A DNA stretch of 64,000 nucleotides from Escherichia coli (GCF_003019035.1 NZ_CP027447.1), one strand, 5' to 3'. Shown: positions 8,194 through 8,376, numbered from the stretch's first letter. The notes: generated by a model not told the origin, from the sequence alone. Made by a program: numbers and translations.

Positions 8194-8376
8194 ATGAACA
8201 TAAATGGAAAAAACGCTTCTTTTACGTCTGAAGAGTTAGCCAGGAAATATCATGAGGAAGCCACGGTTGATTTAAAAAATAACCATGGCGATAAAATAAA
8301 TGAGAAGAATAACAATAAACACATTACTTACTTTCCCGTTGATGCCATTTTAGATGGGAATAAACATCTGCCATGA
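8194..8376 (+). CDS. Hypothetical small protein (60 aa) between chaperone and translocator genes
   Basis: ORF in the 248-nt gap between eicA and eipB with a weak ribosome-binding site. No recognisable family; may be non-coding. Confidence 0.3.
   Translation: MNINGKNASFTSEELARKYHEEATVDLKNNHGDKINEKNNNKHITYFPVDAILDGNKHLP

Follow-up and report, generated by a model that had tools for sequence, protein, structure and literature searches.

Does the 60-codon open reading frame (ORF) that lies between the translocator chaperone gene and the major translocator gene of the Escherichia coli eip island encode a working protein, or is it part of an ordinary intercistronic spacer? The window, i.e., the whole 64,000-nucleotide stretch of E. 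coli DNA that was analyzed (GCF_003019035.1, NZ_CP027447.1), corresponded to the selC-B/eip island and matched strain AR_0013 at 100% over the region. This island is a companion of the ETT2 type III secretion system (T3SS), and the eip region was found in 733 of 5,426 complete E. coli genomes. The features on which the question turns were as follows.

3843 to 5027: setC
5138 to 6061: yicL
6065 to 6883, minus strand: nlpA
7023 to 7385: yicS
7687 to 8184, plus strand: eicA, class II (TPR) T3SS translocator chaperone, 165 amino acids (ORF list, Pfam, RefSeq)
8182 to 8184, plus strand: eicA stop codon TGA
8185 to 8431, plus strand: eicA-eipB intercistronic spacer, 247 nt, GC content 33%
8194 to 8376, plus strand: 60-codon ORF (ORF60), RefSeq "hypothetical protein" WP_001024521.1
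8420 to 8426, plus strand: Shine-Dalgarno (SD) sequence of eipB, AGGAGGT
8432 to 10213, plus strand: eipB, major translocator (SipB/IpaB-like, PF16535), 593 amino acids (Pfam, RefSeq)
10226 to 11377, plus strand: eipC
11421 to 12770, plus strand: eipD, tip protein (PF06511)
12973 to 14670, plus strand: eilA, HilA-like regulator

A large inverse autotransporter gene lies beyond eilA on the opposite strand. Upstream of setC, positions ~1 to 3500 (L001, 352 to 3850) hold a CP4-type remnant on the selC-A side, which in the RefSeq annotation of the identical strain includes genes for RadC, DUF987, the YeeU antitoxin and CbtA toxin, a truncated DUF5983, DUF957, DUF4942, and a rhuM fragment.

The genes flanking ORF60 were those assumed in the preliminary description of this DNA, namely, a TPR class II chaperone (PF07720) followed by a SipB-like translocator (PF16535). 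The eicA product matched the Pfam family TPR_3 (PF07720, E = 2.3e-17) and bears the RefSeq name "SycD/LcrH family chaperone," and matches to PF07720, PF16535, and PF06511 followed one another in chaperone-translocator-tip order, in agreement with the RefSeq product names. In the interval between yicS and air/iatC, gene content and gene order agree with those of the published eip island of EAEC 042. That island consists of six genes, eicA, eipB, eipC, eipD, eilA, and air/eaeX (PMC11068852; PMC7058095), and in the EAEC 042 genome paper the tags of eip run from Ec042-4007 to 4012, six in all, equal in number to the named genes. No ORF is described between eicA and eipB in the published island, whereas the window strain carries an open 60-codon version there. 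The E. coli eip chaperone was also encountered at 99% identity in a MAG labeled Collinsella sp. (L016, JAIJJM010000039.1), almost certainly through a binning error.

The order of TPR class II chaperone, major translocator, minor translocator, and tip protein is shared with ipgC-ipaBCD of Shigella, which belongs to the Inv/Mxi-Spa family of T3SS, and sicA-sipBCD of Salmonella is a translocator operon of the same type. The gap between the chaperone and translocator genes differs among these systems, with 247 nt in the eip island, 5 nt in Shigella, 2 nt on a Providencia plasmid, and overlapping genes in an E. coli plasmid T3SS. The 5-nt ipgC-ipaB gap agrees with the preliminary description, in which the translocator gene directly follows the chaperone gene in Shigella; the long ORF-bearing spacer noted there for the window is present as well, but it measures 247 nt (8185 to 8431) and not the 248 nt originally reported.

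ORF60 starts with the ATG at 8194, ends with the TGA at 8374 to 8376, and has a 60-amino-acid translation identical to that given in the preliminary description. The ATG lies 9 nt past the eicA stop, a position from which coupled re-initiation would be possible, and the end of the ORF lies 55 nt ahead of the eipB ATG (8432). When the spacer was shuffled with its dinucleotide composition preserved, a plus-strand ORF of at least 60 amino acids arose in 63 of 5,000 shuffles (1.3%), and one on either strand arose in 6%. ORF60 is longer than is usual by chance for one spacer and unremarkable for a feature picked from a 64-kb window. Both the improbable length and the start immediately behind the chaperone gene speak for ORF60 being a real, lineage-restricted small protein coupled to that gene, which would then be a fast-evolving, dispensable T3SS accessory that is partly being lost; with the frameshifts and substitutions described below also weighed, this is unlikely. 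An antisense ATG ORF of 123 amino acids (8350 to 8721, minus strand) runs opposite to the end of ORF60, the remaining spacer, and the initial 290 nt of eipB; it is absent from the RefSeq annotation and is probably a shadow ORF of eipB.

PGAP annotated ORF60 in every one of 59 island-carrying complete genomes, a sample of full-length rows picked at regular intervals from the ranked list of 733 matches. RefSeq WP_001024521.1 and its allelic variants correspond to ORF60, the record being an automatic call that no family, name, or experimental work supports. Three features within the ORF are of importance for its variation among strains.

8274 to 8279, plus strand: A6 homopolymer run, the site of both frameshift alleles
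8291 to 8300, plus strand: tandem ATAAA repeat, two units
8329 to 8373, plus strand: last 15 codons of ORF60, YFPVDAILDGNKHLP, with lower variability

Conservation of the frame among strains carrying the island, which had been proposed as the check on a coding role, was not found, as slips in the A6 run break the frame in about one-third of E. coli carriers. In alignments, one haplotype had A7 at this run and a second had A5; the A7 (+1) allele yields a 29-amino-acid product (ending VDLKK) and the A5 (−1) allele a 34-amino-acid product (ending VDLKITIAIK). The A7 haplotype also exists in frame (containing EEGTVDLKNNHG), so the A5 and A7 slips were separate events. Frameshifted copies made up 19 of the 59 complete genomes (32%; 7 with the +1 length and 12 with the −1 length), as judged from match length, with one genome per group checked directly and the others assigned by identical length and score. 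A second, independent sample was drawn from metagenomes with the eipB start, and not ORF60, as the anchor; among its 41 contigs, 16 frameshifted copies (39%; 13 A5 and 3 A7) were read directly. Copies with A5 or A7 are flagged by PGAP as "frameshifted" pseudogenes. EAEC 042, in which eip was originally defined and which is its prototype strain, carries the A5 (−1) allele. The frameshift products end ahead of the less variable C terminus of ORF60, and eicA, eipB, eipC, eipD, eilA, and air were annotated as intact in representatives of both frameshift lineages. Truncation in this share of carriers, with the rest of the island intact, counts against a working accessory protein.

One observation on the frame points the other way. 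In a metagenome scaffold (L006, 1175 to 1351; sample ERZ28575614), an A5 allele had lost one ATAAA unit, which restored the frame and gave a product of 58 amino acids with the usual C terminus. Such a compensated frameshift would be consistent with selection for an intact protein; it was seen in a single contig, an equivalent length occurred in none of the 59 sampled complete genomes, and slippage of a 5-nt repeat would restore the frame of the A5 allele by chance in one case out of three. Programmed −1 frameshifting at T TTA AAA was considered and rejected on inspection of the sequence, as the −1 frame ends after two codons and nothing is gained. Frame-breaking deletions were also seen in translocator genes: a 7-nt deletion breaks eipB in one metagenome contig (L084, window-equivalent positions 8858 to 8864), and a 1-nt deletion in an E. 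albertii-type contig (L039, 1624 to 3389) splits the translocator into pieces of 160 and 387 amino acids.

For the analysis of substitutions, 59 alleles (18 from RefSeq and 41 from metagenomes) were aligned over eicA, the spacer, and the initial 600 nt of eipB; two low-coverage contigs with obvious indel errors were left out. To obtain the neutral expectation, the observed base changes were redistributed to random positions.

eicA: 52 events, 35 synonymous and 17 nonsynonymous, 15.0 synonymous expected, P < 0.001, omega ~0.20, codon positions 10/9/33
ORF60, 60 codons: 51 events, 15 synonymous and 36 nonsynonymous, 14.6 synonymous expected, P = 0.50, omega ~0.96, codon positions 18/16/17
eipB, first 600 nt: 89 events, 56 synonymous and 33 nonsynonymous, 25.4 synonymous expected, P < 0.001, omega ~0.24, codon positions 18/15/56

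The substitutions in ORF60 look neutral, and by the same test both eicA and eipB are under clear purifying selection. In the first set of 15 alleles, all 64 of the sixty-codon windows taken from eicA and eipB were significant at P ≤ 0.05, and the test is thus able to detect constraint as strong as that on the neighboring genes; in this set, ORF60 gave P = 0.155, with an NG86 dN/dS of 0.43, and two out-of-frame controls gave P values of 0.64 and 0.85. Weak constraint on ORF60 would still be compatible with the ~50 events observed.

Variation was unevenly distributed along ORF60. Codons 1 to 45, with 0.33 events per site and an omega of ~1.3, were the most polymorphic stretch from the eicA start to ~400 nt into eipB, and this value, together with an omega of ~1 and flat codon-position counts over the whole ORF, argues against an accessory protein under selection. 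The last 15 codons contained 6 events, 5 synonymous and 1 nonsynonymous, a ratio that favors such a protein (P = 0.018, for a partition chosen after the data had been seen); the density of events there was 0.13 per site, similar to the 0.155 of the noncoding positions 8374 to 8431. The ATG and the position of the stop were kept in every ORF60 allele without a frameshift. That none of 47 events created a new stop was discarded as evidence of selection, being uninformative (P ~0.3 under neutrality). The synonymous fraction of ORF60 (~0.3 to 0.36) was similar to the fraction in the hypervariable C-terminal region of eipB. Given neutral-like mutation and a frame that is broken in about one-third of carriers, ORF60 most likely does not function as a gene.

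Among E. coli alleles, the hypervariable region of eipB (9780 to 10050, approximately residues 450 to 540) had as many as 131 events in 180 nt, and the share of synonymous changes was as low as 0.34 to 0.41; the 5′ third of eipB had 16 to 35 events in windows of this size. The pattern looks like allelic mosaicism or diversifying selection.

Homologues of ORF60 outside E. coli were found neither by a word-index search nor by an exhaustive HMMER search of 1.84 billion representatives with a profile of ten ORF60 variants, a further point against an accessory protein. The word-index search returned nine clusters, all of them full-length, truncated, or frameshifted variants of the E. coli type, with 77 to 100% identity over the aligned part. 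Beyond these, the profile recovered two more E. coli forms along with two weak matches (P0037 and P0038), the latter rejected as homologues; both are long, internally repetitive proteins that share a short stretch resembling FT.E.LAKKY. Searches of Pfam and NCBIfam gave no family match for ORF60. AlphaFold2 prediction from a shallow alignment gave a mean pLDDT of 57 and a pTM of 0.24, with one helix at residues 12 to 30, and the low confidence of this structure likewise does not favor a working protein.

The motif P/VxLxxP is the class II chaperone-binding motif known from work on IpaB-IpgC and YopD-SycD. A sequence of the PxLxxP type is present at residues 57 to 65 in five of five major translocators examined, including PMLAPP at residues 62 to 67 of the eipB product and PELKAP at residue 65 of IpaB; its location near residue 60 is common to EipB, Shigella IpaB, and three other eip-like translocators. 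Neither ORF60 nor its divergent allele contained a match to P/VxLxxP, which is a point against the ORF60 product being a partner of the chaperone. An origin of ORF60 as a duplicated translocator N terminus was rejected: ORF60 and a 70-amino-acid ORF of E. albertii (described below) were aligned with the N-terminal 100 residues of EicA and of EipB, EipC, and EipD homologues from five islands, and the 42 shuffle-controlled alignments yielded one P value of 0.014, as multiple testing predicts. A "KNAS-TS" match of ORF60 to the EipC N terminus was not significant.

Related loci were reached through EicA homologues, and the spacers at six of these loci were compared with that of the window. A chaperone alignment run against species-representative genomes added little, with two loci recovered, one of which was a misbinned E. 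coli contig. Percentages refer to the chaperone relative to EicA.

L009, E. albertii island at the same chromosomal site: 71%, spacer of 263 nt, longest plus-strand ORF of 70 amino acids
L012 and L013, a second eip-like cluster in two assemblies labeled E. coli: 55%, spacer of 255 nt, longest plus-strand ORF of 30 amino acids
L014, SPI-1-like cluster: 55%, spacer of 282 nt, longest plus-strand ORF of 36 amino acids
L018: 52%, spacer of 171 nt, longest plus-strand ORF of 29 amino acids
L019, Ysa of Yersinia enterocolitica: 55%, spacer of 121 nt, no plus-strand ORF
L020: 57%, spacer of 34 nt

The translocator ORFs of L009, L012, and L014 could not be extended upstream to an earlier start. A long spacer (247 to 282 nt) thus characterizes the eip-like group and is not peculiar to the window strain. 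The sequence of the spacer is not shared, as DNA local alignments of the E. coli spacer with those of E. albertii, L012, L014, L018, and L019 had z scores of −0.9 to +1.0 relative to shuffles. No recognizably related ORF was found in the more distant eip-like islands, so that conservation of the frame also fails at this distance, and the absence from the L012 and L014 spacers of any ORF longer than 36 amino acids weighs against both an accessory protein and a translated leader.

The E. albertii spacer is the exception as to ORF length. Its 70-amino-acid ORF (L009, 6519 to 6731) is on the same strand as the chaperone gene, has a GTG start that overlaps the chaperone stop, and is of a length that arises in 0.4% of shuffles of this spacer. 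It shares with ORF60 its position and strand, a similar spacer length, and a length greater than is usual by chance, and it would be the positional counterpart of ORF60 if, against the balance of the evidence, the two ORFs encoded an accessory product such as a small secreted substrate or an EicA partner. The improbable length of both ORFs and the overlap of the GTG with the chaperone stop are in keeping with that possibility, as is the presence in the E. albertii ORF of PELIKP, which fits the PxLxxP pattern of the translocators, whereas ORF60 contains no such motif. The N termini of the two products are also alike (MN-IN-K-A..S), the global alignment being marginal (P = 0.065). By other measures, significant similarity was not detected, with no BLASTP alignment, a local alignment P value of 0.63, and a DNA z score of −0.66, and ORF60 likewise resembled no translocator N terminus significantly. 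The E. albertii ORF is an orphan that forms a single cluster and is not called as a gene in NCBI assemblies; its spacer was identical in three loci, with one variant that had 2 changes.

Two of the four long-spacer islands have improbably long ORFs at the same place, which a plain-spacer reading leaves unexplained, and a decaying or fast-evolving small gene is therefore kept as a rival explanation. The ORF lengths in E. coli and E. albertii hint that something kept the spacer open. In its most extended form, this explanation would have a very fast-evolving small protein encoded right after the chaperone gene in Escherichia eip-type islands, as ORF60 and as the 70-amino-acid ORF of E. albertii; the protein would be translationally coupled and either chaperone binding or secreted, selection would act only on the openness of the frame and on a short C-terminal or motif segment, and some E. 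coli lineages would be losing the protein. This scenario is considered very unlikely. N-terminal composition is not by itself diagnostic of a T3SS substrate.

The spacer may alternatively act in cis. It would then be a regulatory region of eipBCD with ORF60 as its leader, the act of translation and not the peptide setting the expression of eipB, and this is regarded as very unlikely. The routes by which such a leader could work are mRNA stability, protection from Rho-dependent polarity, and an internal promoter or processing site. A long spacer of 247 to 282 nt that is kept in four eip-like islands without its sequence being kept is consistent with a role of this kind, as is the start of ORF60 directly after the eicA stop. 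The 100 nt ahead of eipB also vary less (0.13 to 0.16 events per site) than codons 1 to 45 of ORF60; the local level at third codon positions is 0.18 to 0.24, and with values so near this level, constraint on the 100 nt is weak at best. Searches of positions 8185 to 8431 revealed no promoter-like or terminator-like sites on the plus strand, the predicted RNA fold of the spacer was no better than those of shuffles (minimum free energy of −45.9 kcal/mol compared to a shuffle mean of −43.7 kcal/mol; z = −0.49), and Rfam gave no match at E ≤ 1 on either strand of 6900 to 9000. An attenuator-type leader or structured RNA in the spacer thus has no support. Moreover, the frameshifts move the ORF60 stop ~80 to 95 nt upstream in one-third of strains with no visible compensating change, a further point against a leader. 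As a separate candidate, MxiE-box-like sites (GTATCGTTTTTTTANAG, with at most 3 mismatches) were sought and rejected; the window contained three matches, none of them near eicA or the spacer, and as many occurred in 3 of 100 shuffles, a count not clearly above chance.

Translation signals differed in strength among the genes of the island. SD pairing was weakest for ORF60 (−4.8 kcal/mol), and ~11% of random 20-mers nearby in the window reach −5 kcal/mol. The corresponding values were −8.7 kcal/mol for eicA, −12.9 for eipB, −6.3 for eipC, −12.1 for eipD, and −8.6 for eilA. The weak SD of ORF60 is another point against an accessory protein. The AGGAGGT of eipB was invariant in the alignments examined.

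Overall, ORF60 is a genuine open frame but probably not a gene under selection, and it is best regarded as an ordinary, dispensable ORF in a long intercistronic spacer; the open frame is most likely fortuitous or the relic of a small gene that lost constraint. Among the three options of the preliminary description, a noncoding spacer is the one that the broken frame, the lack of a related ORF, and the neutral-looking substitutions support. A small accessory protein is disfavored by the broken frame and the same substitutions, and a leader is without structural support, as the spacer contains no terminator or attenuator fold. In mechanistic terms, the 247 nt would separate eicA from eipB as a long spacer within one eicA-eipBCD transcription unit, and eipB would be translated from its own strong, invariant SD, independently of anything encoded in the spacer. 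Ribosomes finishing eicA may occasionally restart at the ORF60 ATG with its weak SD, and the product would be a peptide of 60 amino acids, or of 29 or 34 amino acids in A7 or A5 strains, respectively, and would serve no selected function in E. coli today. The cotranscription of eicA and eipB, the occasional re-initiation at the ORF60 ATG, and the lack of function of the peptide are inferred.

If ORF60 is such a spacer frame, the PGAP "hypothetical protein" between eicA and eipB in more than 700 complete E. coli genomes is not a seventh eip gene, and the "frameshifted" flag in strains such as EAEC 042 is no sign of island decay. The finding is ordinary and matters little beyond a tidier annotation of the eip/ETT2 accessory island. 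Were ORF60 a functional small protein after all, it would add a small chaperone-coupled component to the eip/ETT2 secretion system.

The chaperone-translocator spacer of ~250 to 280 nt sets the eip-like islands apart from the tightly packed operons of the Shigella type. Across the loci compared, spacing fell into classes of 0 to 34 nt (Shigella, Providencia, the E. coli plasmid T3SS, and L020), 121 to 171 nt (Ysa and L018), and 247 to 282 nt (eip-like islands), with no sequence common to the spacers. The divergent eip-like cluster of L012 and L013 (1 to 10480; GCA_009799345.1 and GCA_910664965.1), whose spacer has a GC content of 25% and no long ORF, encodes the chaperone followed by a 582-amino-acid translocator, a 452-amino-acid protein, a tip protein, and a HilA-like regulator, and it carries the gene for a large invasin-type inverse autotransporter upstream instead of downstream.
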